DNA from: Thermoplasmata archaeon
GTDB taxonomy: Archaea > Thermoplasmatota > Thermoplasmata > Lutacidiplasmatales > UBA184
DNA length: 64,000 nt
Assembly: GCA_035504395.1 (NCBI GenBank)
Contig: DATJRX010000032.1
Location: 1,510-65,509, forward strand
Reading direction: 5' to 3'
Shown here in pieces: positions 34,032 through 64,000 of this stretch (its first letter is position 1; the number at the start of each line of letters is the position of its first letter). The translations under genes were made by a program, and so were the position numbers. The notes under the pieces were generated by a model. It made no database searches. It had not been told where the DNA came from and saw only the letters and a program-made list of their open reading frames with translations.

Positions 34032-34138
34032 GGCGCGGCCGGCGCCGCGCGGCGGTGGTCGGTTGGATTAAGAACGGGAAGTCGATAACCCGCGAACGGT
34101 CGGGCCGGCCGAGTCCCGATCCCGCGTAGGGTCGAAGA

Positions 34139-35170: not shown

Positions 35171-35174
35171 GCCG

Positions 35175-37393: not shown

Positions 37394-38475
37394 GCGACCC
37401 CGGCCCGGTGCTCGAGACCGAGCGCCTCGAGAAGTTCTTCCCGATCACGCGGTCGATCGGGGAGACCCTCCATCGCCGGTCCGTCCGCGCGATCCACGCG
37501 GTCGACGGCGTGACGATCTCGGTCCGCGCGGGGGAGACCCTCGGCCTGATCGGCGAGTCCGGCTCCGGGAAGACGACGTTGGGGTGGCTGGTCGCCCGGC
37601 TGCACGCCCCGACCGGCGGGACGATCCGGTTCGACGGCGAGGACATCACGAACCTGAAGGGCCGGGCGCTGCGCGCGTGGCGGCGGAACGTGCAGATCGT
37701 CTTCCAGGACCCGGTCGGGTCGCTCGACCCGCGGCTGAGGGTCTGGCAGATCGTGGGAGAACCGATCCGGGCCCAGGAGGGACTCCCGTCGGCCCAGGTG
37801 CGGGACGCGGTGCGGGACCTGCTCCCGACCGTCGGGCTCCCGGTCGACTGCCTCGACCAGTACCCCCACGAGTTCTCCGGAGGGGGTCGGCAACGCCTGT
37901 CGCTCGCCCGCGCGCTCAGCGTCCATCCGAAGCTCATCATCCTCGACGAGCCGACGAGCGCGCTCGACGTCGCGGTCCAGGCACAGATCCTGAATCGGCT
38001 GGTCGAGCTCCAGCGCGAGCGCGGCCTGGCGTACCTCCTCATCACCCACAACGTCGCCGCCGTGCGGTTCGTCGCCGACCGGGTCGCGGTGATGTACCTC
38101 GGCCAGATCGTCGAGTACGCCGGGGTCCGGGACCTGCTCGAGCACCCGGTCCATCCCTACACGAAGGCGCTCCTCGCCGCGGTCCCGGTGCCCGATGCGA
38201 GCCGGCGGCGCACGCGCTACCGGATCGGCGGCGACATCCCGTCGCTCGTCGACCCGGCGCCGGGCTGCCGCTTCGCGCCGCGCTGTCCGTTCGTGATCGA
38301 ACGGTGCCGGACCGAGGATCCGCCGCTGGTCCCGTTCGGGGCGTCGGGCCGTCTCGTCGCCTGCCACCGCGCCGAGGAGGTCCGGGACATCGCGCCCGAC
38401 GCCCTGCTGGCGACGGCCGGTCCGGCCCCGGCGGCGGCGACAGGCTCCGCGGCTAGCTCAACCACTGCGAGTTGA
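37390..38475 (+). CDS. ABC transporter ATP-binding protein, DppF/OppF-like
   Basis: GTG start overlaps the upstream stop (GTGA). Walker A GESGSGKTT, signature FSGGGRQR, Walker B LIILDEPTSALD, then GCRFAPRCPF. Confidence 0.9.
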   Translation: MSDPGPVLETERLEKFFPITRSIGETLHRRSVRAIHAVDGVTISVRAGETLGLIGESGSGKTTLGWLVARLHAPTGGTIRFDGEDITNLKGRALRAWRRNVQIVFQDPVGSLDPRLRVWQIVGEPIRAQEGLPSAQVRDAVRDLLPTVGLPVDCLDQYPHEFSGGGRQRLSLARALSVHPKLIILDEPTSALDVAVQAQILNRLVELQRERGLAYLLITHNVAAVRFVADRVAVMYLGQIVEYAGVRDLLEHPVHPYTKALLAAVPVPDASRRRTRYRIGGDIPSLVDPAPGCRFAPRCPFVIERCRTEDPPLVPFGASGRLVACHRAEEVRDIAPDALLATAGPAPAAATGSAASSTTAS

Positions 38476-40414
38476 AGCCGATCGAGAACGGCTCGGCGCT
38501 CGCCATCGGGTTCTCCACGAACCCGTGGAGGTTCGAGGCGTAGACCGCGAACGAGGTCGGCACGACGAGCCAGATCTCGCTGTAATCGTTGTAGAGCGCC
38601 TGCGTCATCGTGGCGTAGAGGTCGGTCAGCGTCTGGTTGTTCGTCGCGTTGTTGTCCGGGGTGCTCGCTGCCGAGTAGACCATCTGGTCGAGGGTCGCGT
38701 TGTAGTCCGGCGACGCGACGTTGTTGAAGCCGGCCATGCACATGTTCGCGCTGCCCGAGCTCACGAAGTCGTTCTGGGTCCAGTCGTCCGGGGAGATGTA
38801 GTCCGACGTGTAGAACTCCTGGCCCATGTAGAACGGCCCGCCGTTGAGCGTCGTGTTCGAGGCGCACTCCCCCGCGCTGTAGCCCTGCTCGGCGATCAGG
38901 CCGTCCAGGTTCACCGGGATCGGCTGGATCGTGATGTTGATCGCCTTCAGATCGTTCTGGAGGAGCGAGGCGGTGTCGGACCAGTCCGACCCCGAGTTGA
39001 GGTACATGTACTTGATCGTGTCCCCGCTGCAGGCGCCCTTCGCGCACGGCGAGTTCGCCATCTCCTGGTAGGCGAGGGAGAGGTCGTAGGGGTACGGCGA
39101 GAGCGCCGGGGTGCTGCCGTTGGCGGGGTCGTAGTACGGATACGACGGCGGCACCGGGCCGACCCACTGCGTCGCGTACCCACCGAACGCCTCCTGGATG
39201 ATCTGCTGGTAGTTGATCGCGTGCGCGATCGCCTCCCGGACCGAGAGGTTGTTGAACGGATAGACGGACTGGTTCAGGTAGATCCACCACGATCCGCTGG
39301 TCGCCCCGTAGATCGTCGACAGCGGCTGCACGACGATGTTCGAGTGCCCTTCGAGCTGCTGGATCGTCGAGGGCCCGATGTAGGCGAACGACGCCCCCTG
39401 GACGTGGCCATCGAGCAGGTCGGCCGTCGTGATGTCGATCGTGTCCTGGAAGATGATCTCGACCGAGGTGTTCGCCACCTGCAGGTTCACGTTCCAGGGC
39501 TCGGCCGCCGCGGCCGTCGCTCCCCAGTACTTGGGGTTCGGCTGGAGGACGTAGCCCCCTCCGCCGGCGCCGTTGTAGTCGAGGAGCAGGTACGGTCCCG
39601 TCCCGAGGGTGTTCGTCGCGGCGTACGTGTTCACGTTCCCGACCGAGACGCCTCCGTTCGCGTCGATCCAGACCGGGTCGACCGCGTACGAGTTCGGCGC
39701 CGAGATCGAGGCGAGCAGGTAGGTGTAGTTCGTCGCGAGGTAGCCGTAGCCGAGGTTCAGCGCGATGGAGTACTCGTTGATGACCTGGAACGACTGGTTC
39801 GCGGTCTCCATCATCGCGATCTCGGAAGCGGTCGGGTTGTCGAAGTTCCAGGAATTGAGGTCGCTCGCCAGGGTCGCGTTCGCGGCCTGGACGGTCGCGT
39901 TGGGCGAGTAGTACGAGAGCGGATCGGACGCGCTGAAGTTCGTCGAGTAGAAGTTCTCCTCCAGGATGAATTGCGGACCCTGCTCGAGCAAGAGGCTGCG
40001 GTAGAGGCTGTACCATTGGACGTAGGCGTTGTAGGGATCCCCGTTCGAGAAGACCACGCCCTGCCGGAGCTCGAAGGTGTAGGTCGAGATGTTGGTCCCG
40101 GTGTCGGGGTTGTAGTTGCTGGTCACGGTCCAGCCCGACGCGAGGACCCCCGAGAAGCTCGTCGAGCTCGAGCCGTTGTAGTTCACGAGCCCCTGGTAGA
40201 CCTGCTGGACGGCCGCCCATCCGGGCGTCGTGAACGTGACGGCGGGGTCGAGCGAGTCGGGGATCTCGGCCTGATCGATGCAGATGTACGCCTTCTGGTT
40301 CGGCCCGCAGTTCGAGGTCGTCGAGTGCTGCAGGGCGAAGTAGACGCCGATCCCGGCGACGACCACGACGATCACCAACGCGATGACGATGACGTTGCGG
40401 GTCTGGGGTCGCAT
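38453..40414 (-). CDS. ABC transporter substrate-binding protein, family 5 (PepT-type), membrane-anchored glycoprotein
   Basis: N-terminal anchor MRPQTRNVIVIALVIVVVVAGIGVYFAL with an SBP_bac_5-like layout. At least 15 N-x-S/T sequons. ATG at 40414. It is convergent with the ATPase gene, with a 23-nt 3' overlap. Confidence 0.85.
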   Translation of the reverse strand: MRPQTRNVIVIALVIVVVVAGIGVYFALQHSTTSNCGPNQKAYICIDQAEIPDSLDPAVTFTTPGWAAVQQVYQGLVNYNGSSSTSFSGVLASGWTVTSNYNPDTGTNISTYTFELRQGVVFSNGDPYNAYVQWYSLYRSLLLEQGPQFILEENFYSTNFSASDPLSYYSPNATVQAANATLASDLNSWNFDNPTASEIAMMETANQSFQVINEYSIALNLGYGYLATNYTYLLASISAPNSYAVDPVWIDANGGVSVGNVNTYAATNTLGTGPYLLLDYNGAGGGGYVLQPNPKYWGATAAAAEPWNVNLQVANTSVEIIFQDTIDITTADLLDGHVQGASFAYIGPSTIQQLEGHSNIVVQPLSTIYGATSGSWWIYLNQSVYPFNNLSVREAIAHAINYQQIIQEAFGGYATQWVGPVPPSYPYYDPANGSTPALSPYPYDLSLAYQEMANSPCAKGACSGDTIKYMYLNSGSDWSDTASLLQNDLKAINITIQPIPVNLDGLIAEQGYSAGECASNTTLNGGPFYMGQEFYTSDYISPDDWTQNDFVSSGSANMCMAGFNNVASPDYNATLDQMVYSAASTPDNNATNNQTLTDLYATMTQALYNDYSEIWLVVPTSFAVYASNLHGFVENPMASAEPFSIGFNSQWLS

Positions 40415-40553
40415 CGAGGACCACCTCAGAAGTCTGGGCCGAATCCCCCTCCCCCTTGATAAGGTGTACCATGGGGGGTCTCCGCCCTCGAGAAGGCCGT
40501 GCGCCCGGCACCCTCTTTTATCCGGGGGGAACTGGCCGCGGCCGAGGCCGTCC

Positions 40554-42047
40554 ATGGGCCAGAAGATGCTGATCGGAGGCGAGTGGGTCGAGGCGTCGAG
40601 CGCCGCGACCGTTCCCGTGACCAGCCCGTTCGACGGGGCGACGATCGACACGGTCCCGCAGGGGGGTCGGGAGGACGCTCGCGCCGCGGTCGATGCGGCC
40701 CGGGAGGCGTTCGACCGGGGCCCGTGGCCGCGGATGCCGCCGCGCGCCCGAGGCGAGGTCTACCTCAAGGCGGCCGCCCTGATCCAGTCCCGGATCGCCC
40801 CCCTGGCGGAGCTCGAGTCGCGCAATCAGGGCAAGACGATCAAGCAGGCCCAGGACGCGGACCTCCCGTTCTCGGTCGACAACCTGATCTTCTACGCCGG
40901 GGCGGGCCGCCTGCTCGACGCGAAGAGCCCCGGGGAGTTCACCGGGGATGGCACGACGATCTTCCGGCGGGAGCCGGTCGGGGTCGTCGCGTCGATCACC
41001 CCGTGGAACTACCCGTTCATGATGGCCGTGTGGAAGATCGGTCCGGCGCTCATCACCGGCAACACGGTCGTGCTGAAGCCGGCGAGCTGGACGCCGCTCA
41101 CGACCCTCGAGCTCGGGCGTGCCTTCGACGAGGCGGGGCTGCCGAAGGGCGCCCTCAACGTGGTCACCGGACCGGGAGGGGAGGTCGGGGACGAGCTGTC
41201 GCGCCATCCCAAGGTCGACATGGTCTCGCTGACGGGGGACACGGCGACCGGCAAGAAGATCATGGAGGCGGCGAGCGGCACCGTCAAGCGGACGCAGCTC
41301 GAGCTCGGCGGGAAGGCCCCGTTCGTGGTCTTCGAGGACGCGGACCTCGCCGCGGCCGTGGAGGGCGCGATCGTCGCGGGGTACGTGAACGGCGGGCAGG
41401 ACTGCACGGCCGCGACGCGCCTCATCGTCCACCGGAACGTCCGCGGGAAGTTCGTGAAGCGCCTCCTCGAGCGGGTCGCCGCGATCCGGGTCGGGGACCC
41501 GTTGCAGCGCACCACCGACCTCGGCCCGCTGGTCCACACGACGCAACAGCGGCGCGTCCTCGAGTTCGTGGAGAAAGGGAAGGACGAAGGGGCCCAGCTC
41601 CTCGCCGGCGGCACCGACGAGCGCGCGAAGCAGCTCACGGGCGCGTTCGTCGCGCCGACCGTGTTCGACGCGGTGACCCCGGACATGACGATCGCGCAGC
41701 GGGAGGTCTTCGGACCGGTCCTGGACGTGCTCGAGTTCGAGACGTTCGACCAGGCGCTCGAGATCGCGAACGGCGTCGAGTACGGGCTCGCGGGTTCGGT
41801 GTGGACCAACGACCTTCGGACCGCCGTGAAGGCCGCGAACGCGTTGAGGTTCGGGGACGTCTGGGTGAACGACCACCTGCCGCTCGGCTCCGAGACGCCG
41901 CACGGCGGGATGAAGCAGTCCGGGTTCGGCAAGGACCTGGGGGCGGACTCGCTCTACGATTACACGACCGTGAAGAACATCTACATCGATCTCACCGGCC
42001 AGGCCCGGAAGGCCTGGCATTACACGACCTACGGCGATCCGGCGTGA
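40554..42047 (+). CDS. NAD(P)-dependent aldehyde dehydrogenase (aminoaldehyde / betaine-aldehyde DH-like)
   Basis: ITPWNYPFMMAVWKIGPALITGNTVVLKP, LELGGKAP, and the catalytic Cys context GGQDCTAATR. ATG at 40554. Confidence 0.9.
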   Translation: MGQKMLIGGEWVEASSAATVPVTSPFDGATIDTVPQGGREDARAAVDAAREAFDRGPWPRMPPRARGEVYLKAAALIQSRIAPLAELESRNQGKTIKQAQDADLPFSVDNLIFYAGAGRLLDAKSPGEFTGDGTTIFRREPVGVVASITPWNYPFMMAVWKIGPALITGNTVVLKPASWTPLTTLELGRAFDEAGLPKGALNVVTGPGGEVGDELSRHPKVDMVSLTGDTATGKKIMEAASGTVKRTQLELGGKAPFVVFEDADLAAAVEGAIVAGYVNGGQDCTAATRLIVHRNVRGKFVKRLLERVAAIRVGDPLQRTTDLGPLVHTTQQRRVLEFVEKGKDEGAQLLAGGTDERAKQLTGAFVAPTVFDAVTPDMTIAQREVFGPVLDVLEFETFDQALEIANGVEYGLAGSVWTNDLRTAVKAANALRFGDVWVNDHLPLGSETPHGGMKQSGFGKDLGADSLYDYTTVKNIYIDLTGQARKAWHYTTYGDPA

Positions 42048-42054
42048 GGGGTCC

Positions 42055-43542
42055 GTGATCGACGGCCTCCCGGCGAGCGGCAAGGGCTCGCTCCTCATTG
42101 GGGGCGAGTGGCGGGCGCCCGCGAGCGGCCGGTACCTCCCGGTCCGCGACCCGTCGACGGGCCGGGCGATCGCGGAGGCGCCGGTCGCGTCCGCGGACGA
42201 GGCGCGGGCCGCGGTCGACGCGGCGGCGGACGCCGAGGAGCGGTGGGGGCGGGTCCCGGGCCACGAGCGGGCCCGCGTCCTCCGGGCCGCCGCGGAACGG
42301 CTCCGCGCGGACCGCGACACGCTGGCCCGGCTGATCGCGATGGAGGTCGGGAAGCCGATCGCCGACGCGCGGGTCGAGGCGGACCGCGCGGTCGGGGTCT
42401 ACCAGCTGGCGGCCGAGGAGATCCGCCACCTGGGCGGCGAGAGCTACCCCGCCGACGCCTACGAGCGTCCCGCGGGCAACGAGACGCGGTTCCTGTTCTC
42501 GGTCCGGGACCCGGTCGGGGTCGTGGTCGCGATCGGGCCGTTCAACTTCCCGCTCAACCTGCTGAGCCACAAGATCGCCCCCGCGCTCGCGGCCGGGAAT
42601 CCGGTCGTGGCGAAGCCCACGAGCGCGGCGCCGTTCACGGCGCTCCGGCTGGCGGAGCACCTCACCGCGGCCGGGGTCCCGCCGGGGGTCCTCAACGTGG
42701 TCACCGGTCCGGGCGGCTCTGTGGGGGACGCGCTCGTCGAGCACCCCCGCACGCGGCTCGTCACGTTCACCGGCTCGACCGAGGTCGGCAAGGCGATCGC
42801 CGGCAAGGCCGGGGCCCGCGCGAAGCGCGTGATCCTCGAGATGGGCGGAATGGACCCGTTCGTGGTGCTCGCGGACGCTGCGCTCGAGCCGACGGTCGAC
42901 GCCGCGGTTCGTGGGGTCTTCGCCTACTCGGGCCAGGTGTGCACCGCATCGAAGCGATTCCTCGTCGCCGAGCCGATCGCGGACGCGTTCGCGCAGCAGT
43001 TCGCCGCGCGCGCCCGCGCGCTGAGGGTCGGGCCGGCCCTCGAGGAGTCCACGCAGGTCGGCCCGCTGATCGACCCCGCCGCGGTCGAGCGCATGGAGAC
43101 GCTGGTGGCGGACGCGAGGTCCCGGTCCGCGGAGGTCCTCACCGGCGGCGGGCGGCCCCCGGGCCGGACGGAGGGGAGCTTCTTCGAACCGACGGTGATC
43201 GACCGCGTGCCCGAGGCGGCCCGGGTCCTCCACGAGGAACCGTTCGGGCCGCTCGCCCCGATCGTCCGGTTCCGGGACCTCGACGACGCGGTCCGGATCG
43301 CGAACGGCACCCCCTACGGACTCCAGGCGGCGGTGTACACGCGCGACCTCGCGCGCGGGTTCGCGCTCGCGAAGCGGATCCGCGCCGGGGGCGTGCACCT
43401 CAATGACCCGACCAACCTCCGGTGGGACGCCCTGCCGTTCGGCGGGGTGAAGGAGAGCGGCCTCGGCCGCGAAGGGCTGCGCTACGCGATGCAGGAGATG
43501 ACCGAGGTCAAGCTGATCTCGGTCAATTTCGCGGGTGCCTGA
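42055..43542 (+). CDS. NAD(P)-dependent aldehyde dehydrogenase (lactaldehyde / succinate-semialdehyde DH-like)
   Basis: IGPFNFPLNLLSHKIAPALAAGNPVVAKP, ILEMGGMDP, and the catalytic Cys context SGQVCTASKR. GTG start 7 nt after the previous stop. Confidence 0.9.
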   Translation: MIDGLPASGKGSLLIGGEWRAPASGRYLPVRDPSTGRAIAEAPVASADEARAAVDAAADAEERWGRVPGHERARVLRAAAERLRADRDTLARLIAMEVGKPIADARVEADRAVGVYQLAAEEIRHLGGESYPADAYERPAGNETRFLFSVRDPVGVVVAIGPFNFPLNLLSHKIAPALAAGNPVVAKPTSAAPFTALRLAEHLTAAGVPPGVLNVVTGPGGSVGDALVEHPRTRLVTFTGSTEVGKAIAGKAGARAKRVILEMGGMDPFVVLADAALEPTVDAAVRGVFAYSGQVCTASKRFLVAEPIADAFAQQFAARARALRVGPALEESTQVGPLIDPAAVERMETLVADARSRSAEVLTGGGRPPGRTEGSFFEPTVIDRVPEAARVLHEEPFGPLAPIVRFRDLDDAVRIANGTPYGLQAAVYTRDLARGFALAKRIRAGGVHLNDPTNLRWDALPFGGVKESGLGREGLRYAMQEMTEVKLISVNFAGA

Positions 43543-54659: not shown

Positions 54660-55199
54660 ATGCCCCCATCGATCCGTCCCGCCGAGCTTGCCGACCTCCC
54701 GGCGATCGTCGAGCTGTACAACCACTACGTCCGGTCGACGGCCGCGACGTTCGAGATCGCGGAAGTTCGTCCCGAGGACAAGTCCGGGTGGTTCCACGAG
54801 CACGGCGCGTCCGGCCCGCATCGGATGCTGGTCGCGGTAGATGCCGCCGGCGGGGTGATCGGGTGGGCGACGACGAGCCCGTTCCGCCCGCGGGCCGCCT
54901 ATCGGACGACCGTCGAGTCGTCGATCTACCTCCACCCCGTGGCGGTGGGCCGGGGCGTGGGTTCGCAGCTCTACGGCGCGCTCTTCGACTCGATCCGGAA
55001 CGAGGACCTCGAGCGGATCGTCGCGGGGATCTCCCTTCCGAACCCGGGTTCGGTCGCGCTCCACCGCCGGTTCGGCTTCCAGCCGGTCGGGGTGTTCACG
55101 CGCGTGGGGCGGAAGTTCGATCGGTACTGGGACGTGGCGTGGTTCGAGCGACCCTTGCGCCTGCCGGCCCCGGCGCCTCCGCGGGCGCCTACGCCGTAG
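54660..55199 (+). CDS. GNAT acetyltransferase, phosphinothricin / L-amino-acid N-acetyltransferase (PAT/YncA)-like
   Basis: IRPAELADLPAIVELYNHYVRSTAATFE, VGRGVGSQLY, and FGFQPVGVFTRVGRKFDRYWDVAWFE are PAT-family hallmarks. ATG at 54660; the ORF extends to 54591. Confidence 0.8.
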   Translation: MPPSIRPAELADLPAIVELYNHYVRSTAATFEIAEVRPEDKSGWFHEHGASGPHRMLVAVDAAGGVIGWATTSPFRPRAAYRTTVESSIYLHPVAVGRGVGSQLYGALFDSIRNEDLERIVAGISLPNPGSVALHRRFGFQPVGVFTRVGRKFDRYWDVAWFERPLRLPAPAPPRAPTP

Positions 55200-56262
55200 C
55201 GCCCGTCGGGGGCGCGCCGGGGAGGACGGCCGACGTTGCGATCAGCGCGTCGGCCGGGACGTCCGCCACCTCCTCCGCCCGGTGGCAGGCGACCTGCCGG
55301 TCCGGCCGACCGGGGAGCGCGCGCAGCGCGGGCGACTCGGAGCGGCACCGGTCGACCGCGAACGGGCAACGGGGCGCGAAGCGGCACCCCGGGGGCGGGG
55401 AGAGGAGGGTCGGGATCTCGCCGGTGATGCGGTAGCGCGCCCGGCGCCGCTTCGGATCCGGCACCGGGACCGCAGCGAGGAGCGCCTTCGTGTACGGATG
55501 GACCGGATGCTCGAGGACGTCGTGGACGTCCCCGAGCTCGACCACCTCGCCGAGGTACATCACCGCCACCCGGTGCGCGGCATAGCGGACCGCGGCGACG
55601 TTGTGGGTGATGAGCAGGTAGGCGAGCCCCCGCTCGCGCTGGAGGTCGACGAGGCGGTTGAGGATCTGCGCCTGCACGGCGACGTCGAGCGCGCTCGTCG
55701 GCTCGTCCAGGATGATCAGCCTCGGGCGGACGCTCAGCGCCCGGGCCAGCGAGAGTCGCTGGCGGCCGCCGCCGGAGAACTCGTGCGGGTACTGGTCGAG
55801 GCACTCGGGCGGCAGTCCCACCGTCGGGAGGAGGTCGGCGACCCGTCGGCGCAGCTCGGCCCGCCCGACCGATTCCTGCGAGCGCATGGGTTCGCCGACG
55901 ATCTGCCAGACCCGCAGCCGGGGGTCGAGCGATCCCAGCGGGTCCTGGAAGACCATCTGGGCGTGGCGGTGCCAGAGGCGGAGCGCCCGCCCGCCGAGCC
56001 GGGTGATGTCCGCCCCCTCGAACCGGATCGCGCCCGAGGTCGGCGGGTACAGGCGCGCGGCGAGCCAGCCGAGCGTCGTCTTGCCGGACCCGGATTCGCC
56101 GATGAGGCCGAGCGTCTCGCCCGCGCGGAGGGAGATCGAGACCCCGTCCACTGCGTGGATCGCCTTCGGCGCGCTCCCGTGGACGAACTCCTGGAACGAC
56201 CGGTTGATCGGGAAGTGCTTCACGAGGTTGACGGTCTCCAGGAGCGGCGGTGCGTCGGTCAC
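55189..56262 (-). CDS. ABC transporter ATP-binding protein, DppF/OppF-like (paralog of 37390-38475)
   Basis: GTG start overlaps the upstream stop (GTGA). GESGSGKTTLGW, FSGGGRQRLSLARAL, LIILDEPTSALD, GCRFAPRCPF. Confidence 0.9.
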   Translation of the reverse strand: MTDAPPLLETVNLVKHFPINRSFQEFVHGSAPKAIHAVDGVSISLRAGETLGLIGESGSGKTTLGWLAARLYPPTSGAIRFEGADITRLGGRALRLWHRHAQMVFQDPLGSLDPRLRVWQIVGEPMRSQESVGRAELRRRVADLLPTVGLPPECLDQYPHEFSGGGRQRLSLARALSVRPRLIILDEPTSALDVAVQAQILNRLVDLQRERGLAYLLITHNVAAVRYAAHRVAVMYLGEVVELGDVHDVLEHPVHPYTKALLAAVPVPDPKRRRARYRITGEIPTLLSPPPGCRFAPRCPFAVDRCRSESPALRALPGRPDRQVACHRAEEVADVPADALIATSAVLPGAPPTGATA

Positions 56263-57425
56263 GGCAGCGCCTCGACCTCGCTCGCGAAGTGGCACGCGGA
56301 CGCGTTGGAGTGGAGGCGAGGGGATCCCACGGGGGCCGCGAGCGCCGGCCCGGGCTCGGCGGAGCACTCCGGCCGCGCGATCGGGCAGCGGGGGGCGAAC
56401 GCACAGCCGTCGGGGAGGCGCGAGAGGTTCGGGACGGATCCGGGGAGCGTGGGGAGGGCGCCGTCGCGCTGGTAGGTCCGCGGGATCGAGCGGAGCAGCG
56501 CCTTCGTGTACGGATGGCGCGGGGATTCGAAGACGTCCGCCACCGGGCCGAACTCGACGAGCGCCCCCGCGTACATCACGCCGACCTGGTCGGCGATCTC
56601 GGCGATGACCCCGAGATCGTGGCTGATGAACAGGATCGAGGTGTGGATCTCGTCCATCAGCTCCTTCATCAGGGTGAGGACCTGCGCCTGGATCGTCACG
56701 TCGAGCGCGCTCGTCGGCTCGTCCGCGATCAAGAGCGACGGCCGCGCGGAGAGCGCGGTCGCGATCATGATGCGCTGGCGCATCCCACCGGACAGCTCGT
56801 GCGGGTAGAGGTTGAGGATCGTCTCGGGATCGTTGATGCGGACGAGCCGAAGATACTCGAGCACCTCCCGCTTGAGCGCCGCGCCCGAGACGTCGCCGTC
56901 GGGCGGGGCCTTCCCCTCGAGGGAGTCGGGGACCCGCGGGAGGAACGCATGCGAGAGCGCCTCGGCGGTCGGGACGGGGTCGCCCTTCGAGTAGTCGTGC
57001 GGGACCAGATCCGGGTGGAACATCGGCGCCCGGCCCGACTCGCGCAGGCGCCGGATCCGGACGGCCTCCGCGACCTGCTTGTAGATGCGGAAGGCCGGGT
57101 CGAGCGAGTTGATCGGCTCCTGGAAGATCATCCCGATGCCGGTCCCGCGGACGTACGGCATCCGCCACTTCGGGACCTGGAGGAGATCGACGCCCTGGAA
57201 CCGGATCCGCCCCGATCGCGTCCGGGCCGGGGGCTCCGGCAGGAGGCGGGGGATCGAGTGCGCGAGCGTGCTCTTGCCGCAGCCGGTCTCGCCGACGATC
57301 CCGACCACCTCGCCGGGCGCCATCTCGAACGTGACGTTCCGCAGGGCATGGAACGTCCCGGCCCCGACGACGTAATCGACGCTCAGCCCCTCGACCTCGA
57401 GGATCGGCTCCGCCGTTCTCGTCAC
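56259..57425 (-). CDS. ABC transporter ATP-binding protein, DppD/OppD-like (paralog of 36227-37393)
   Basis: GETGCGKSTLAHSI, LSGGMRQRIMIATAL, LLIADEPTSALD. The GTG at 57425 gives VTRTAEPILEVEGL, parallel to the paralog N-terminus. The ORF extends to an ATG at 57500, which overlaps the cupin gene. Confidence 0.85.
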   Translation of the reverse strand: MTRTAEPILEVEGLSVDYVVGAGTFHALRNVTFEMAPGEVVGIVGETGCGKSTLAHSIPRLLPEPPARTRSGRIRFQGVDLLQVPKWRMPYVRGTGIGMIFQEPINSLDPAFRIYKQVAEAVRIRRLRESGRAPMFHPDLVPHDYSKGDPVPTAEALSHAFLPRVPDSLEGKAPPDGDVSGAALKREVLEYLRLVRINDPETILNLYPHELSGGMRQRIMIATALSARPSLLIADEPTSALDVTIQAQVLTLMKELMDEIHTSILFISHDLGVIAEIADQVGVMYAGALVEFGPVADVFESPRHPYTKALLRSIPRTYQRDGALPTLPGSVPNLSRLPDGCAFAPRCPIARPECSAEPGPALAAPVGSPRLHSNASACHFASEVEALP

Positions 57426-57453
57426 CTCCCTCGGAGGGGCCGGGTTCGCTCCC

Positions 57454-57786
57454 TCATCCCGTGACCCGCTCGGGCGGTGCGAAGACGACGAGCAGCACAA
57501 GCTCCTCGGTGATCGAGTGGAACCGGTGCGGGACGTGGGCGGGAACGAACAGCACCTCCCCGGGCTTGGCCTCGGAGTCGACGCTGCCGTGCGTGAGCCG
57601 TCCGCGGCCCCGGACGACGTAGTAGATCTCGTCCTCGGAGTGGGGGGACTGGCGGTCGATCGCGCCCGGGGCGAGGACGTACACCCCGACGCTCATCGTC
57701 GGAACGCGCAGGAACTCCCGCCAGTCGCCCGGGTTCTGCTTGGCCCGCTCGGCCTCCTCCTCGATCGCCGTCATCGCCGTCCGCAC
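57454..57786 (-). CDS. cupin-domain protein (cupin_2-like), ~110 aa
   Basis: PHSEDEIYYVVRGRG...GEVLFVPAHVPHRF matches the two-motif cupin core G(X)5HxH...G(X)5PxG(X)2H in divergent form. The start is GTG 57786 or ATG 57774. Confidence 0.75.
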   Translation of the reverse strand: MRTAMTAIEEEAERAKQNPGDWREFLRVPTMSVGVYVLAPGAIDRQSPHSEDEIYYVVRGRGRLTHGSVDSEAKPGEVLFVPAHVPHRFHSITEELVLLVVFAPPERVTG

Positions 57787-57799
57787 GCGCCGCTTCGGA

Positions 57800-59152
57800 T
57801 TAACCGCCCGGGGCCCCGGCGTCGAGCGCGAGCACCTCCTCGGCCGCGCGGACCCCGGTCTCGATCGCGCCGGCGACGGTCGCCGAGAGCCCCCGCGTCT
57901 CGGTCGCCTCGCCCGCGAAGAAGAGGCGGTCCCCGACCGGGGCCGCGAGCGCGGCGCGGTCGGAGAGGCGCGCCCCGACCGGGAGGAACGAGTAGGCGCC
58001 CCGCGCGAAGGGATCGTTCGACCACCGGTGGACGCGGGCCCCCTCCACCGTCCCGAGGGAGATGCCGGGCGGGAGCAGGGAGTCCCACTCCTGGACGGTC
58101 GCCGCGACGAGATCGGCGTCGCTCAGGTCGGCCCGGCGCCGCGCCTCTCGCCCCACCGTGAAGGCCGTCACGATCTCGATCGGCTCGCCGAGGCCGACGC
58201 GCGGGCGGAGGAAGGTCGAGGCGGTCCCTCCCCAGACGAGGGCGAACTCGCCGAGGCGCGCGCGGGCGGTCCCGCCGCGCAGCCGCAGCGAGACCGCGTA
58301 GCCGTCGGCGAAGGCGATGCGGGCGATCGCCGCCCGCTTCGCCTCGGGAAGGGGAGGATCGAAGACGATCGCCCCGGAGCGCAGCACGCCGAGCGGCACG
58401 GTGACGATCGCGCGCGGCGCCCGGTAGATGCGGTCGGGCCCATCGACGGGGTGGACCGTGACCGCGACGCCCGCGGCGGTCCCGCGGACCTCGGTCACGG
58501 GGGTCCCGAGCCGCACGCGGTCCCCGAGCGCCGCCGCCTCCCGCTCCGCGAGGGTCGAGTACCCCTCCACGACCCGGAAGTTCCGGAAGCCGAAGGGCTC
58601 CGGCGCCCGGCGGTCCTCCTCCCCGGGGCCGAGGATCCCGATCGCATCCGCGTCGGCCGCGTAGGTGTGGGCGTGCAGGAGCTCGACGAGCAGGCGGGCC
58701 GCCGGAGCGGGTCGCGCCTCGTCGAGGAAGTCGGCGATCGACCGGTCCGGCGGCCCGAGCGCCTGCAACCGGCCCGGGATCCCGCGGAGCCCCGCGTACG
58801 TCGCCCGGGTCCCCGCGGCGGGGTGGAACGGCAGCGCGAACCACGGATAGCGCGCGATCCGGCCCCGGACCACGAGCCGGCTCCGCTGGGTGAGCGGGAG
58901 CGGCGCGGCCGTGAGCCCCCGGCGCGCGAGCCACGCGTGCGTGACGACGTGCCGGCCGTGCACCATCTGGGCGCCGAGCTCGAGCGGGACGCCGGCGAGC
59001 GTGCGGTCCGTCAGGACCCGGCCCCCCACCCGGTTCCGGGCCTCCAGGACGAGCACACGGCGCCCGGCCTCGGTCAGGCGGTGGGCTGCGGCGAGACCGG
59101 CGAACCCGGCCCCGACGACGAGAACGTCGACCTCGGAGTCTCCGCTCGCCAT
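57800..59152 (-). CDS. flavin-containing amine oxidase (polyamine / monoamine oxidase-like)
   Basis: DVLVVGAGFAGLAAAHRLTEAGRRVLVLEARNRVGGRV N-terminal FAD fold and C-terminal LFFAGEATE motif. Confidence 0.85.
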   Translation of the reverse strand: MASGDSEVDVLVVGAGFAGLAAAHRLTEAGRRVLVLEARNRVGGRVLTDRTLAGVPLELGAQMVHGRHVVTHAWLARRGLTAAPLPLTQRSRLVVRGRIARYPWFALPFHPAAGTRATYAGLRGIPGRLQALGPPDRSIADFLDEARPAPAARLLVELLHAHTYAADADAIGILGPGEEDRRAPEPFGFRNFRVVEGYSTLAEREAAALGDRVRLGTPVTEVRGTAAGVAVTVHPVDGPDRIYRAPRAIVTVPLGVLRSGAIVFDPPLPEAKRAAIARIAFADGYAVSLRLRGGTARARLGEFALVWGGTASTFLRPRVGLGEPIEIVTAFTVGREARRRADLSDADLVAATVQEWDSLLPPGISLGTVEGARVHRWSNDPFARGAYSFLPVGARLSDRAALAAPVGDRLFFAGEATETRGLSATVAGAIETGVRAAEEVLALDAGAPGG

Positions 59153-59161
59153 GGTCCCGCG

Positions 59162-60178
59162 TCACGTCCCGGGCTCGTCCGAGCGCTCGACGGGGATCGG
59201 GGCCGGGACCGCCACCCGCTCGCGGGCGAAGGCACGGCGGGTCCGGGGATCGAGCACGTCCCGCAGCCCGTCGCCCAGCAGGGAGAATCCGAGCACCGTG
59301 ACGAAGATCGCGAGCCCGGGCGCGAGCACGAGGTACAGGTACTGCGGCAGGTACCCCTGGTACTCGAAGACCATGCTGCCCCACTCGGGCGTCGTCGCCG
59401 GCAGGGAGATCCCGAAGTACGAGATCGTGGAGAACGTCACGAGGACGGTCCCGACGTCCAGGGTCGCGTACACGGTCAGCGGTTCGAGCAGGTTGCGGAC
59501 CACGTGCCGCAGCAGGATCCGCGACTCCGACGCCCCCGCGATGCGGGCCGCCGGGATGTAGCCCTGGTGCTTGATCGTGAGCACCTCGCCGCGGACGAGC
59601 CGGACGTAGTACGGCCACCAGGTGATGATCAGGGCCGCGAGCGTGGCGGTGAGATTGCGTCCGAGGATCGCCGCGAGCGCGAACGCGAGCACGAGGGTCG
59701 GGAAGGCGAGGAAGACGTCGGTGACCCGGAGGATGAAGCCGGCGAGCGGCCGGCTGAAGCGGCCCGAGTCCCAGAAGCCGGAGACGAGGCCGAGCCCGCC
59801 GCCGATGATCAGCGCCGCTCCGACGATCGCGAAGCCGATGAAGAGGTCGAGCGGGAGCGCGGCGAGCACCCGGGAGAAGACGTCACGGCCGAGGTTGTCG
59901 GTGCCGAACCAGTGCTGCCAGCTCGGGCCCTGGAGCAGGGTGGGCGAGAGCGCGTTCGGGTCGTAGGGCAGCAGCGAGACCGCGCGCCCGATGAGCGCCT
60001 TCGAGACGAGCGGCACGAGCTCGACGGCCGCCGCCAGGACCACGGTGACGAGGACCAGGAAGAAGCCCGCCGCGGTAAGCCGGTTCGCCCGGAGCGTCCG
60101 GACCGCCTCCCCGAGCGTGTCCCGCCGTCGGATCGTGCCGGCCATCGGCGCCGGAGGGGAGGGACGCGACGCGGCCAT
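59162..60178 (-). CDS. ABC transporter permease, DppC/OppC-like (paralog of 35175-36230)
   Basis: GTDNLGRDVFSRV, IPAARIAGASESRILLRHVVRN. The start is immediately adjacent to the upstream stop. Confidence 0.85.
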   Translation of the reverse strand: MAASRPSPPAPMAGTIRRRDTLGEAVRTLRANRLTAAGFFLVLVTVVLAAAVELVPLVSKALIGRAVSLLPYDPNALSPTLLQGPSWQHWFGTDNLGRDVFSRVLAALPLDLFIGFAIVGAALIIGGGLGLVSGFWDSGRFSRPLAGFILRVTDVFLAFPTLVLAFALAAILGRNLTATLAALIITWWPYYVRLVRGEVLTIKHQGYIPAARIAGASESRILLRHVVRNLLEPLTVYATLDVGTVLVTFSTISYFGISLPATTPEWGSMVFEYQGYLPQYLYLVLAPGLAIFVTVLGFSLLGDGLRDVLDPRTRRAFARERVAVPAPIPVERSDEPGT

Positions 60179-61198
60179 CTAGCGCCAGTCCACCCGCGGG
60201 TCGATGAGGCCGTACAGGATGTCCGCGATCAGGTTCGCGATCACGACGGCGATCGCGAACACGATCACGATCGCGATGGTGCCCGCGAAGTTGTAGCCGA
60301 CGACCGCGTCGTACGAGTACTCCCCGATGCCGGGCCAGCGGAACACCTCCTCGATGACGATCGTGCCCGACAGCAGCCCGCTCGCCGTGAAGCCGAGCAC
60401 GGTGGTCGTCGTGATCAGGGAATTGCGGAGCACGTGGCGGAGGACCACGGTGCCCTCGTTGAGGCCCTTCATCCGGGCGCTCTTCACGAAGTCCATCGGG
60501 AGGACCTCGAGCATCGAGCTGCGCGTCATCCGGGTGATGATGCCGAGGTTGAGGAACGCGAGGGCCGTCGCCGGGAGGATGAGGTGCTCGATCGCGTTGA
60601 CGGTGTACGGTAGATTGCCGGCTAACAGGGCGTCGAGGACCGACATGTGGGTCGGTTGCGGGAACGGCGGTGGATTCACGGAGAAGTCGCCCCCCGTGGG
60701 GAGCCCGACCACGGGACCGATCACGAACGCGAGGAGGACGGCGGCCAGGTACGTCGGCGCCGCCCAACCGCTCAGGTAGAACAACCGGACGAGGTGGTCC
60801 GGCCACCGGCCAGCCCACCGGGCCGCCACGACCCCCAGGAGGATGCCGAACACGATCATGATGAGGAGCGCCGCGAGCACGAGCTCGACGGTCTCGGGGA
60901 GGGCCGCCGCGATCACCGGGTAGACCGGCACCCCGTTCTGGTCGGTCCCCCAGTTGCCCTGCGCGAGCTGGACGACGTACTTCTCGAACTGGATCCAGAT
61001 CGGTTGATTGAATCCGAAGAACTGGCGGCACGCGGCGATGACGTCCGGCTTCGCGTGGGGGTACCACGCGGGACACGGGTCCGAGATGATGACGTGCGTC
61101 AGGAGGAACGTGAGGAGGATGACGCCCAGGAGGACCGGGACGAGCTCGGCGAGGCGGACCCCGATGAAGTAGGCCAGGTCGGAGAGGCTCCGCCCCAT
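60179..61198 (-). CDS. ABC transporter permease, DppB/OppB-like (paralog of 34139-35170)
   Basis: MGRSLSDLAYFIGVRLAELVPVLLGVILLTFLL and FVKSARMKGLNEGTVVLRHVLRNS. Confidence 0.9.
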   Translation of the reverse strand: MGRSLSDLAYFIGVRLAELVPVLLGVILLTFLLTHVIISDPCPAWYPHAKPDVIAACRQFFGFNQPIWIQFEKYVVQLAQGNWGTDQNGVPVYPVIAAALPETVELVLAALLIMIVFGILLGVVAARWAGRWPDHLVRLFYLSGWAAPTYLAAVLLAFVIGPVVGLPTGGDFSVNPPPFPQPTHMSVLDALLAGNLPYTVNAIEHLILPATALAFLNLGIITRMTRSSMLEVLPMDFVKSARMKGLNEGTVVLRHVLRNSLITTTTVLGFTASGLLSGTIVIEEVFRWPGIGEYSYDAVVGYNFAGTIAIVIVFAIAVVIANLIADILYGLIDPRVDWR

Positions 61199-61305
61199 GC
61201 TCCTTCAGGCCCCCGGGTCGGGGACGTCCGGCGCCGGCAGCGCGTCGGCCGCGGTCACTCGGACCGCGTAACGGAAGGCCCCCGATAAACGCGCCGGCGG
61301 TTCTC

Positions 61306-61746
61306 TTACGCCGGGGGCGTCGCGTCGAGCTTTGCGGCGAGGTTCCTCGCGAACTCCTCCGCGTCGGGCCCGACGCGCTTCGCGAGATACGAGTCGATCA
61401 CGGCGCGCAGGGCCCCCGTGCCGGTCATGGTGAGGGTCAGGGTCACGTCGGTCGCGTCCGGCGGCGCCGCGACGAACGCGAGCCGGCCCTCGATCGTCGC
61501 CTCGGGTCCGCGGGCGCGGAACCGGACGCCCGCCTCGCTCCCCTCGAGGAGTTCGCCCTGGTAGAGGCTCTTCCTCGAGATCGGTCCCAGCTTGATCGCC
61601 ACGGTCCAGATGGCGGTCCGCTCGCCGGTCCGCTCGACCCCGACGACCTGGGGGATCAGCGCGGCGACGAACGTCGGGTCCGAGAGGGACCGGTGCAGGG
61701 CCTCCGGAGCCGCCGGCGCCCGGAAGCGGACCGTGGACTCGGGCAC
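61306..61746 (-). CDS. SRPBCC-superfamily protein (CoxG / carbon monoxide dehydrogenase subunit G-like)
   Basis: Size (146 aa) and pattern (..FVAALIPQVVGVE...WTVAIKLGPISRK...) fit CoxG-type SRPBCC. It starts 4 nt after the stop of the upstream oxidoreductase. Confidence 0.6.
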   Translation of the reverse strand: MPESTVRFRAPAAPEALHRSLSDPTFVAALIPQVVGVERTGERTAIWTVAIKLGPISRKSLYQGELLEGSEAGVRFRARGPEATIEGRLAFVAAPPDATDVTLTLTMTGTGALRAVIDSYLAKRVGPDAEEFARNLAAKLDATPPA

Positions 61747-61750
61747 GGAA

Positions 61751-63307
61751 CTACGTCCCCGCGTTGGCCGCGTGAAGGTCGGCGAGGACGACGCCGGCGG
61801 CGTTGTGGCCGGGGGCGCCGATCACGCCGCCGCCCGGATGGGTCGCGCAGCCGCAGAGGTAGAGGCCCGGGACCGGGGTCCGGTAGTTCGACCAGCCCGG
61901 CATCGGCCGCAGGCTGAAGATCTGGTCGGGCGTGATGTCGCCCTGGTCGATGTTCCCGCCGGTCATCCCCAGCGTGCGCTCGATGTCGAGCGGCGTCACG
62001 ACCTGCCAGTGGCGCACGAGCGCCCGGATCCCGGGCGCGTACTCCTCGATCGTCGAGAGGACGGTCTCCGCGACCGCCTCGCGCGCGTCGTCCCAGGCGC
62101 CGCCGCGCAGCTCGGTCGGCGCGTACTGGACGAAGCAGGTCATCGTGTGCTTCCCGGCGGGGGCGACGCTGGGGTCGACGAGGCTCTGGAAGTAGATGTC
62201 GATCGAGGGCGCCCGGGAGAACTGACCGAACTTCGCGTCGTCGAACGCCCGCTCGATGTACTCCATGCTGGGGCAGATGTCGACCGCCCCGACCAGGTGC
62301 CTCGGGTCCGGATCCGCCGTGAACGTCGGCACGCCGTCGAGCGCGGCGTTGAACTTGAGGCAGGCTCCGCGCGATCGGATGCGATGGACCCGGGACTCGA
62401 TCGCCCCGTCGAGCGTACCCCGCGGGAGCAGCTTCAGCAGGGTGTTCGGCGCGTCGGCGTTCGAGACCACGGCCCGCGCCCGGATCGTCTCGCCCGCGTC
62501 AGTGACGATCCCGACCGCGCGGCCGTGCTCGACGACGACCTCCCGCACCCCGACCCCAGTCCGGATCGTCGCCCCGGCGTCGGTCGCCGAACGCGCCATC
62601 GACTCGGTGATCCGTCCCATGCCGCCGCGCGAGTGGCCCCAGACGCGGCGGTGCTCCCCGATCCGCCCGATGTTGTGGTGACCCAGGATGTACGCCGTGC
62701 CGGGAGTGTACGGTCCGGCGAACGTGCCGATCGTCGCTCCCGCCGCGAGCGCGCCCTTGAGCTCGGGGCTCTCGAACCAGTCGTCGAGGAAGTCCCGGGC
62801 GCTGCGGAGGAAGAGGTCGCGCAGCATCGGCTCCGCCTCCCCGGCGGGCAGGGAGCCGATGAACCGGTCGAGCGGCATCGGCGGCGCCATCATCGCCGGT
62901 TCGATCACGTCGAGCGCGTGGTCCCAGAACCGCAGGTACTCGGGGTAGGCGCGGGCGTCGGCGGCCGAGAACTTCGCGATCTCGCGCTGGTCGTGCCGCT
63001 CGTCCAGCCAGAACCTGAGCGATCGACCGTCGGGCTGCGGGAGGAACGCCTGCGGGTCCGGGAGGATCGGATCGTAGCCGTACCGGACCAGGTCGAGCTC
63101 CTCCACGATCTGGGGCCGGAGGAGCCCGCTCGCGTACGCGAACGTGTTGATGCGGAACCCCGGCCACGGCTCCTCGGTGATGCACGCGCCCCCGACCTGG
63201 GGACGTCGCTCGAGAACGCAGACCCGCGCGCCCGCGCGGGCGAGATAGGCGGCGGCGATGAGGCCGTTGTGCCCGGCCCCGATGACGACGGCGTCGAACT
63301 CCGCCAT
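61751..63307 (-). CDS. NAD(P)/FAD-dependent oxidoreductase of the phytoene desaturase (CrtI)-like family
   Basis: FDAVVIGAGHNGLIAAAYLARAGARVCVLERRPQVGGA and C-terminal GLYLCGCATHPGGGVIGAPG. Confidence 0.85.
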   Translation of the reverse strand: MAEFDAVVIGAGHNGLIAAAYLARAGARVCVLERRPQVGGACITEEPWPGFRINTFAYASGLLRPQIVEELDLVRYGYDPILPDPQAFLPQPDGRSLRFWLDERHDQREIAKFSAADARAYPEYLRFWDHALDVIEPAMMAPPMPLDRFIGSLPAGEAEPMLRDLFLRSARDFLDDWFESPELKGALAAGATIGTFAGPYTPGTAYILGHHNIGRIGEHRRVWGHSRGGMGRITESMARSATDAGATIRTGVGVREVVVEHGRAVGIVTDAGETIRARAVVSNADAPNTLLKLLPRGTLDGAIESRVHRIRSRGACLKFNAALDGVPTFTADPDPRHLVGAVDICPSMEYIERAFDDAKFGQFSRAPSIDIYFQSLVDPSVAPAGKHTMTCFVQYAPTELRGGAWDDAREAVAETVLSTIEEYAPGIRALVRHWQVVTPLDIERTLGMTGGNIDQGDITPDQIFSLRPMPGWSNYRTPVPGLYLCGCATHPGGGVIGAPGHNAAGVVLADLHAANAGT

Positions 63308-63330
63308 CGGGGGCGGCAGGCGGCGCGGGG

Positions 63331-63338
63331 GATAAACT
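63331..63338 (-). promoter_or_regulatory. TATA-box-like element for the CrtI-like gene
   Basis: The minus strand reads AGTTTATC. TTTATC ends 23 nt upstream of the ATG at 63307. Confidence 0.4.
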
Positions 63339-63357
63339 CCTCGACGCGCACGATCTC

Positions 63358-63420
63358 CCTCGAGGAGAATCGAAGCCGGGGGTCGTCCAAAGGGTTAAGG
63401 AAGCGACCCCCTCCTCGAGG
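63358..63420. repeat. nested inverted repeat in the divergent promoter region between the CrtI-like and Rieske genes
   Basis: CCTCGAGGAG (63358-63367) pairs with CTCCTCGAGG (63411-63420), and GGGGGTCG (63378-63385) pairs with CGACCCCC (63404-63411). The repeat encloses the AT-rich GGGTTAAGGAAG. Confidence 0.5.
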
Positions 63421-63436
63421 TCAATCGAGGTGGGAC

Positions 63437-64000
63437 ATGGCCGGGCCGGCGACGCGAGGGACCCGGGGAGGGCTCGGTCCCGTACCCGCGGCCGCGTTGC
63501 GGACCGTCAACCGACCGCTTGACCGCGCGCGCACCCTGCCCGGCCGGCTGTTCAGCGATCCGACCGTCTATGACCTCGAGACCGACCGACTGTTCCGTCG
63601 GAGCTGGCAGTGCATCGGCCGCGAGGACGAACTGGTCCGGCCCGGTGCCTTCCGCAGCTTCGAGGTCGGCGGGTCGGGCGTGGTCGTGGTGCGAGACGAG
63701 ACCGGGACCCTCCGCGCGTTCCACAACGTCTGCCGGCACCGAGGGACGCGCCTCGTGGAGGCCCCCGAGGGCCAGGGGCTCACGAAGCTGGTCTGTCCGT
63801 ACCACGCGTGGACCTACCGGCTCGACGGTCGCCTGATCGGCACACCCCACATGGCCGAAGCGAAGGAGTTCGATCGGGCCGACTTCGGACTTCATCCGGT
63901 CGCGACCGAGGTCTGGCGGGGGTTCGTCTTCGTGAACCTCGACCCGAAGGCGCGGCCGCTGGCGGAGACGCTCGGGGGCCTGCTGCGTCGGGCGGCCCCG
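63437..64000 (+). CDS. Rieske [2Fe-2S] non-heme iron oxygenase, alpha subunit (N-terminal part; 3' end outside window)
   Basis: CRHRG...CPYHAW Rieske motif inside SWQCIGREDEL...VVVVRDETGTLRAFHNVCRHRGTRL...LVCPYHAWTYRLDGRL. The frame is open from the ATG at 63437 to the window end. Confidence 0.85.
   Translation, partial: MAGPATRGTRGGLGPVPAAALRTVNRPLDRARTLPGRLFSDPTVYDLETDRLFRRSWQCIGREDELVRPGAFRSFEVGGSGVVVVRDETGTLRAFHNVCRHRGTRLVEAPEGQGLTKLVCPYHAWTYRLDGRLIGTPHMAEAKEFDRADFGLHPVATEVWRGFVFVNLDPKARPLAETLGGLLRRAAP

Follow-up and report, generated by a model that had tools for sequence, protein, structure and literature searches.

A probable amine-catabolism island of a Lutacidiplasmatales archaeon joins a peptide-family ABC importer and its binding protein to cytoplasmic enzymes

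Introduction

Operons for ATP-binding cassette (ABC) importers often contain enzyme genes, a design well known from operons that pair an importer with degradative enzymes, among them the opine operons occ and noc of Agrobacterium, the polyamine operon spuABCDEFGH of Pseudomonas aeruginosa, and ddpXABCDF of Escherichia coli. A gene cluster of an uncultured archaeon assigned to UBA184 (Thermoplasmata) raises the question of what such a design signifies when two enzyme genes, for a flavin amine oxidase (AO) and a cupin, stand between the permease and ATPase genes of an importer that appears to have no binding protein. The cluster lies in the window analyzed here, a stretch of 64,000 nucleotides (nt) that corresponds to positions 1510-65509 of contig DATJRX010000032.1 (C32), has a G+C content of 73%, and belongs to an assembly of 1.78 Mb in 80 contigs (90% complete). 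We consider it likely that the cluster encodes a complete Opp/Dpp-family importer with a binding protein of its own, organized together with cytoplasmic catabolic enzymes in an amine-catabolism island.

UBA184, together with the AcS/SubAcS metagenome-assembled genomes, belongs to the order Lutacidiplasmatales (TMEG) (PMC9287336). These archaea are aerobic organoheterotrophs that live in acidic soils and have high-GC genomes of roughly 2 Mb, and the only relevant importer named for them is a 'peptide/nickel ABC transport system' (PMC9287336). Our literature searches for a Thermoplasmata amine oxidase with an ABC transporter found no papers, and those for a combination of polyamine, aminotransferase, and Rieske genes returned nothing relevant.

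Results

An Opp/Dpp-type importer and its binding protein

Reading of the sequence and Pfam searches bore out the gene content and spacing given in a preliminary description of this locus. Eight co-directional minus-strand genes are present, all intact and of the families proposed (Table 1), and their successive junctions measure 4, 107, 0, 9, 13, and 28 nt and end in a GTGA overlap. The TAG of the permease gene B2 is followed without a spacer by the ATG of C2, the GTGA overlap joins the ATPase genes D2 and F2, and the AO and cupin genes do lie embedded between those for the permeases and the ATPases. The two ATPases score 84 and 76 bits for oligo_HPY; the Pfam cut-offs are 27.1 for this family, 26.4 for BPD_transp_1, 27.2 for Cupin_2, 22.2 for COXG, and 32.4 bits for SBP_bac_5. 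The locus thus holds the parts that mark an Opp/Dpp (PepT) importer, namely two BPD_transp_1 permeases, two oligo_HPY ATPases, and a linked family-5 substrate-binding protein (SBP).

The binding protein is where our analysis departs from the preliminary description, which held that this importer has no cognate SBP and that the two importers of the window may share one. The window does contain a single SBP_bac_5 gene, SBP1, which is convergent to a second, plus-strand transporter set (set 1, below). A search of the whole genome for PF00496 gave three matches: SBP1, a strong match at C32:67731-69041, and a weak one on contig C4. The strong match belongs to a second SBP_bac_5 gene, SBP2, which lies past the end of the window, 2.6 kb upstream of the operon. 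Of oligo_HPY ATPase pairs the assembly contains exactly three, two encoded on C32 and the third on C4, and all of them have a nearby SBP_bac_5 match, the one on C4 scoring 29.1 bits, under the Pfam cut-off.

SBP2 orthologs, 62-67% identical, occupy the same divergent upstream position in five congeneric genomes. Two of these (G011 and G329) were found via AO and three (G463, G456, and G457) independently via a search with SBP2; in all five, SBP2 stands divergent upstream of the genes Rieske-1, Rieske-2, CrtI-like, SRPBCC, B, C, AO, cupin, D, and F. The preliminary description had itself named a linked binding-protein gene elsewhere as a finding that would speak against it, and a dedicated SBP2 with conserved linkage in G011, G329, G463, G456, and G457 is therefore exactly such a finding. 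The apparent importer without a binding protein is an artefact of the window edge.

SBP1 and SBP2 are 47% identical, and their divergence runs in step with that of the other transporter paralogs. The best NCBIfam matches for both are of the NikA, GsiB, and staphylopine-CntA types, all weak and far below the cut-offs, and their relatives in the PDB are remote. Both proteins have a single, uncleaved-looking hydrophobic N-terminal anchor, a pI near 4, and a content of about 33% Asn/Ser/Thr/Tyr. Together with their N-x-S/T sequons, 16 in SBP1 and 15 in SBP2, this composition suggests heavily N-glycosylated surface proteins of an acidophile.

Table 1. Positions of the importer genes, their neighbors, and predicted promoters (window numbering, continued past the window end as window-equivalent positions)
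Feature	Position	Strand	Length	Remarks
Transporter set 1, B1	34139-35170	+		Set 1 is uninterrupted
Transporter set 1, C1	35175-36230	+		
Transporter set 1, D1	36227-37393	+		
Transporter set 1, F1	37390-38475	+		
SBP1, family-5 binding protein	38453..40417	-	654 aa	N-terminal membrane anchor; 16 N-x-S/T sequons; true start 40417
ABC ATPase F2 (OppF-like)	55189..56262	-	357 aa	ABC_tran + oligo_HPY
ABC ATPase D2 (OppD-like)	56259..57425	-	388 aa	GTG start; ABC_tran + oligo_HPY
Small single-domain cupin	57454..57786	-	110 aa	Pfam Cupin_2 55 bits
Flavin amine oxidase (AO), MAO/PAO fold, predicted cytoplasmic	57800..59152	-	450 aa	PF01593 190 bits
ABC permease C2 (OppC/DppC-like)	59162..60178	-	338 aa	Pfam BPD_transp_1 101 bits
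ABC permease B2 (OppB/DppB-like)	60179..61198	-	339 aa	Pfam BPD_transp_1 128 bits
TATA-like box TTTATC, predicted internal promoter P2 for B-C-AO-cupin-D-F	61284..61289	-		In the 107-nt SRPBCC-B gap
SRPBCC-fold protein (Polyketide_cyc2/COXG)	61306..61746	-	146 aa	Starts 4 nt past the CrtI-like stop
CrtI-like FAD oxidoreductase	61751..63307	-	518 aa	Pfam Amino_oxidase 66 bits
TATA-like box TTTATC, predicted promoter P1	63331..63336	-		Some 30 nt before the ATG of the CrtI-like gene
Rieske-2 oxygenase	63437 to window-equivalent 64606 (C32:66115); 63437..64000 inside the window	+	389 aa	Divergent from CrtI-like
Rieske-1 oxygenase	Window-equivalent 64611-65837	-	408 aa	Tail-to-tail with Rieske-2; 39% identical to it
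SBP2, family-5 binding protein	C32:67458-69401 (window-equivalent 65949-67892)	+	647 aa	SBP_bac_5 174 bits

Gene order in related genomes

To place this arrangement among its relatives, AO gene contexts were drawn from relatives at the genus level, from publicly available contigs, and from the species representatives in GTDB. Ten genomes or contigs of Lutacidiplasmatales share the permease-AO-cupin-ATPase order; they comprise eight species-representative loci, the locus in the window, and the JGI contig L016, and their AO proteins are only 52-62% identical to the one described here. Among species representatives, the 39 AO loci of Thermoplasmata divide into those with B-C-AO-cupin-D-F (5/39), those with a class-III aminotransferase gene added between the cupin and D genes, giving B-C-AO-cupin-class-III aminotransferase-D-F (3/39), a single locus with AO-cupin-aminotransferase upstream of B-C-D-F (1/39), those with AO-cupin beside Rieske/CrtI-like2 genes and no transporter (5/39), and those with AO in other contexts and no cupin (25/39).

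Most AO genes without a cupin neighbor occur in unrelated contexts, next to genes for an ABC-2 exporter, a MOSC protein, acetyl-CoA synthetase, or a TPR-cyclase, and these give no clue to the substrate; one such locus (L072) belongs to the same catabolic island and lacks the cupin. The SBP2-Rieske-Rieske2-CrtI-like module, for its part, is kept even in genomes that have AO-cupin, or the permease and ATPase genes, at another site or not at all (G445, G464, and G489), and the SRPBCC gene is always found 3' of the CrtI-like gene in the relatives examined.

The L016 contig (JGI 3300033977, 203 kb), which has the same eight-gene order, carries a TnpB/Cas12f-like (Cas12f1-like_TNB) gene at 33-797, at the contig end and directly upstream of the CrtI-like gene. 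This neighbor is consistent with rearrangement of the island linked to mobile elements.

The amine oxidase and the cupin

AO matches PF01593 over profile positions 1-443 of 443, and it is predicted to be cytoplasmic because it has no signal sequence. Across 40 homologs, 65 alignment columns are invariant; these include the FAD-binding motifs and the residues E37, R41, G43-G44-R45, and G414-E415-A416-T417. An AlphaFold2 model of the protein (pLDDT 90.6, pTM 0.91) was matched by Foldseek to 8p84, 1b37, 4gu1, 2yg3, and MAO-B (TM 0.76-0.83, 22-30% identity), a group that includes maize polyamine oxidase, a putrescine-binding MAO of Thermoanaerobacterales, LSD2, and putrescine oxidase. The best sequence searches of the PDB reached E-values of only about 1e-28. 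AO resembles the MAO/PAO/LSD flavin oxidases (1b37, 8p84/9h5p, 2yg3, and NicA2) in its PF01593 domain, its GxGxxG, LEA-x-x-R-x-GGR, and FFAGEAT motifs, and its fold, but it is only 22-30% identical to the solved structures listed by Foldseek, has an obligate-looking cupin neighbor, and appears to carry Ala or Gly where their conserved lysine aligns. In HMMER alignments, which locate residues at the alignment level and not in 3-D coordinates, K340 of NicA2 falls opposite AO A286 and the LSD2 lysine opposite G284, and the alignments contain no Lys at AO residues 280-300 or in the strand consensus of the clade, GDAYALQLRV.

More than 1,900 AO homologs occur in a large protein database, the best 120 of which are 53-69% identical to AO. 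The few with names are labeled 'Thermoplasmata archaeon', or 'monoamine oxidase' or 'polyamine oxidase' from JGI metagenomes. Five relatives are from Acidobacteriota (32-36% identical), and all close and all other named homologs are from uncultured Thermoplasmata.

The cupin gene adjoins the AO gene in 16 related loci. Its motifs, PH-x-E-x-E ... H-x-F, are invariant in 17 orthologs, and motif 1 contains a single His, in contrast to the classic H-x-H. The best PDB matches are weak (E ~1e-5) and comprise oxalate decarboxylase domains and the small Thermus thermophilus cupin TTHA0104. These patterns of conservation point to clear constraint on both AO and the cupin. NCBIfam offered no name at or near any cut-off for AO, the cupin, the SRPBCC protein, or either SBP.

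Rieske oxygenases and the wider island

Two Rieske oxygenase genes occupy the space between the CrtI-like gene and SBP2. Rieske-2, which the preliminary description of the cluster leaves out, has the Pfam domains Rieske and Ring_hydroxyl_A, starts with the ATG at 63437, and is 70% identical (tblastn) to its ortholog in G011. Two minus-strand open reading frames here (63395-63895 and 64007-64552; 166 and 181 aa) were rejected as genes, as they have no Pfam match and run antisense to Rieske-2. Rieske-1 has as its closest PDB relatives the stachydrine demethylase Stc2 and the carnitine monooxygenase CntA, and its best NCBIfam match is GbcA, at 197 bits against a cut-off of 670.

The CrtI-like protein is not a bona fide phytoene desaturase by NCBIfam (crtI_fam, 140 bits against 238; CrtO equivalog, 302 against 1000), its best PDB match is 4dgk (1e-17), it is 62% identical to its paralog CrtI-like2, and no carotenoid genes were seen near it; 'CrtI-like' is a description of fold only. 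The preliminary label CoxG for the SRPBCC protein was likewise set aside: its COXG score of 23.4 bits is marginal against the cut-off of 22.2, Polyketide_cyc2 fits better (35 bits), and the neighbors examined include no CO dehydrogenase genes.

The island spans about 27-72 kb (some 45 kb) and contains seven class-III aminotransferase genes, three aldehyde dehydrogenase (ALDH) genes, the two Rieske oxygenases, an Amidohydro_2 protein, a GNAT protein, and a type I glutamine synthetase. Saccharopine-dehydrogenase-like (SacDH-like) genes, whose closest relatives are saccharopine and carboxyspermidine dehydrogenases, lie after SBP2 and before set 1. A gamma-glutamylpolyamine synthetase, as in the gamma-glutamylation pathway of polyamine breakdown (Puu/Spu), was looked for in the island and not found: the glutamine synthetase (27170-28666) passes the type I GlnA model (534 against 429 bits) and not the GGputSyn model (228 against 650).

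Predicted transcription units

The predicted promoters P1 and P2 (Table 1) would divide the cluster into two units. The spacing of P1 from the start codon implies a leaderless mRNA for the CrtI-like gene, if the prediction is correct, and a Shine-Dalgarno-like sequence, GAAGGAG, precedes the B2 ATG downstream of P2. Both boxes are kept as TTTATY at the same positions in L010, L040, and L016. Only four strict TATA-like hexamers occur on the minus strand from 30000 to 76000, all of them intergenic, and two of the four serve this cluster. We found no TATA-like hexamer between B2 and F2 and, from 55000 to 63500, no T-run of four or more on the operon strand, and the gaps from B to F are all 28 nt or less. 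B2-C2-AO-cupin-D2-F2 is thus probably one transcript from P2. The signals favor the CrtI-like and SRPBCC genes as a separate unit with its own promoter, from which read-through into the B2-F2 unit would be possible.

TATA-like hexamers (TTTATN and TTAWAW) are very rare in this 73% G+C DNA. They occur at 32335, 40517, 61284, and 63331, and at the contig-equivalent positions 72095 and 72488, and all those in the 46-kb span fall in, or at the edge of, intergenic regions upstream of gene starts. Judged by this placement, they appear to be a usable promoter marker for the Lutacidiplasmatales lineage. At the far end of the cluster, the 3' end of F2 overlaps a convergent GNAT gene by 11 nt (55189-55199), and no T-rich terminator is visible there.

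The paralogous transporter set

The paralogy asserted for the two transporter sets is real. The B, C, D, and F proteins of set 1 and the cluster (set 2) are 63%, 53%, 63%, and 73% identical, both B proteins start MGRSLSDL, and the GTGA overlap is present in set 1 as well. When we looked for an uninterrupted state of set 2, B-C-D-F without inserted genes was found only in the paralogous set 1. G445 was rejected as a pre-insertion state, as its B-C genes are followed by an unrelated ABC-2 exporter and not by D-F. The locus in question (L054 of G445:C197, 7104-11276) reads SBP2-Rieske-Rieske2-CrtI-like-SRPBCC-B-C and then a DrrA-like ATPase and an ABC-2 membrane protein; the exporter junction could reflect a deletion, a rearrangement, or a join made in assembly.

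An SBP, a SacDH-like gene, and a class-III aminotransferase gene accompany each of the two transporter sets (30979-43542 for set 1; 55189-64000 and C32 to about 73.6 kb for set 2), and the island looks like a partial duplication. In three genomes (G011, G329, and G457), a single locus mixes features of both sets: CrtI-like-SRPBCC-B-C-AO-cupin, an aminotransferase, D-F, and an ALDH. The aminotransferase of this mixed locus is 79-87% identical to the one at 32382, and the ALDH resembles the one at 40383; G011 and G457 also hold an ALDH that resembles the one at 42055. The 3' ends of F1 and SBP1 overlap by 23 nt (38453-38475), again with no T-rich terminator visible.

Discussion

We propose that this locus takes up an amine and begins its breakdown. 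SBP2, whose gene accompanies the importer and whose product is predicted to be membrane anchored, acidic, and rich in sequons, would capture the substrate, and B2/C2 with D2/F2, which belong to the appropriate transporter families, would import it. In the cytoplasm, AO would oxidize a C–N bond to an imine, whose hydrolysis would yield an aldehyde and an amine or ammonia. The conserved cupin may act on the substrate of AO or on a product, and the Rieske pair, the CrtI-like and SRPBCC proteins, the SacDH-like proteins, the class-III aminotransferases, and the aldehyde dehydrogenases would finish the breakdown. At some point, the AO-cupin module would have come to sit between the permease and ATPase genes of one of the paralogous transporter copies. 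The substrate is most likely a secondary or N-alkylated amine (polyamine-, opine-, or betaine-like), and the imported compound is presumably the one that AO oxidizes. Amine oxidases and Rieske oxygenases, being O2-dependent, fit the aerobic lifestyle of Lutacidiplasmatales.

The coupling of uptake to amine oxidation put forward in the preliminary description survives in part. Given the embedded position, the conservation of gene order, and the clear constraint on AO and the cupin, a functional link between the importer and amine oxidation is reasonable; the suggestions of a missing and of a shared binding protein fall away. A more ambitious version of our proposal, which we put forward only tentatively and regard as rather doubtful, is that the SBP, two Rieske oxygenases, CrtI-like, SRPBCC, OppBC, AO, cupin, and OppDF together form an undescribed archaeal pathway for scavenging an N-alkylated amine in acidic soils and peat, in which an AO lacking the lysine works with an obligate, small, metal-binding cupin. 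If this were true, AO might be a dehydrogenase or have altered O2 chemistry and not be a classic H2O2-forming oxidase, and the substrate could be a betaine, an uncommon polyamine, or a compound like the opines.

Several observations weigh against the proposal that importer and enzymes form one amine-catabolic system. At least five related genomes have AO-cupin with no transporter, and different contexts are interleaved in the AO tree, whose deep nodes have weak support. For the Rieske oxygenases, no gene for a reductase partner was seen in the vicinity. Across the whole AO clade, Ala or Gly appears to stand in place of the lysine that contacts flavin N5 through a water molecule in the MAO family, and the chemistry or O2 reactivity of the enzyme may accordingly differ from that of classic amine oxidases; a dehydrogenase-type AO could be envisaged. 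For AO, the cupin, the SBP, and the CrtI-like protein, we found no characterized close homologs, and the PDB matches are remote. As AO-cupin is found without a transporter and its contexts are interleaved on the tree, the embedded position is not obligatory. We make no claim of a single origin for the embedded arrangement, given that tree. AO-cupin behaves as a movable two-gene module, not as a single ancient insertion.

The same mobility feeds the strongest of the alternatives, in which the importer is a generic one for oligopeptides, nickel, or metallophores and the enzyme genes are unrelated passengers, brought together by neutral rearrangement in a fluid island. AO-cupin does occur in several other contexts that are interleaved on the AO tree, the weak best SBP matches in NCBIfam are of the NikA, GsiB, and staphylopine-CntA types, and the survey of the order annotates its system as 'peptide/nickel' (PMC9287336). 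Yet the gene order persists between genomes whose AO proteins have diverged to 52-62% identity, the gaps are tight with no promoter-like element between C and D, and the surroundings are always amine metabolizing (aminotransferases, aldehyde dehydrogenases, and Rieske N-demethylase-like and SacDH-like proteins). On balance, we judge this explanation unlikely.

We give still less credence to the view that the substrate is a betaine-type quaternary or N-methylated compound on which the Rieske and CrtI-like/SRPBCC proteins act as the primary enzymes, AO-cupin supplying an optional accessory step. The retention of SBP2-Rieske-Rieske2-CrtI-like in G445, G464, and G489, where AO, cupin, or transporter genes are missing or located elsewhere, speaks for it, as does the proximity of Rieske-1 to stachydrine demethylase and carnitine monooxygenase, with GbcA as its best NCBIfam match, well below the cut-off. 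However, at 197 against 670 bits the GbcA match falls far short of an equivalog, a reductase partner was not found, and the abundant class-III aminotransferases and aldehyde dehydrogenases fit intermediates of the kind formed when polyamines are broken down, namely primary amines and aminoaldehydes. This view is in any case a refinement of the explanation we favor and not its contradiction. Finally, the idea that the second importer is without an SBP and borrows SBP1, its embedded enzymes marking a special uptake-deamination device, is hardly credible: the single SBP_bac_5 gene in the 64-kb window invited it, but the same contig carries SBP2 2.6 kb upstream, in a position kept in five other genomes, all three ATPase pairs have a nearby SBP_bac_5 match (the third below the cut-off), and SBP1 and SBP2, at 47% identity, have diverged in parallel with the other paralogs.

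Our preferred explanation, a complete importer co-organized with amine-catabolic enzymes, can be set against known systems. With Opp/Dpp importers (PepT, TC 3.A.1.5) that have cluster-C SBPs, among them the opine, metallophore, and nickel binders (MotA, AccA, NikA, and staphylopine CntA), the cluster shares its permeases, oligo_HPY ATPases, family-5 SBP, and D/F overlap. It differs in that SBP2 is divergent and 2.6 kb away, whereas the binding protein is the first gene in Opp/Dpp operons, and in that SBP2 has an archaeal-style N-terminal anchor and about 15 N-glycosylation sequons; two enzyme genes split the permease from the ATPase genes, and the NCBIfam equivalog scores are far below cut-off. 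The logic of occ/noc, spu, and ddp, uptake and the first catabolic steps in one unit, is the same. Here, by contrast, the host is archaeal, the enzymes (MAO-fold oxidase, cupin, CrtI-like, and SRPBCC) are not homologous to OoxAB, SpuABC, or DdpX, and enzyme genes lie between the permease and ATPase genes and not at the operon end. The cluster thus shows no new principle of transport; it is a conserved uptake-and-catabolism cluster, unsurprising in kind, and its novelty lies in which enzymes are present, in a host that is an archaeon, and in the placement of enzyme genes between those for the permeases and the ATPases.

For Lutacidiplasmatales, this would mean that one paralog of the 'peptide/nickel' importer is hard-wired to amine-oxidizing enzymes within an island of about 45 kb. 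SBP2, AO with the cupin, and the Rieske pair are the targets for biochemistry. The arrangement points to the scavenging of organic nitrogen, in the form of amines, as a niche trait of these widespread, uncultured archaea of acidic soil and peat.

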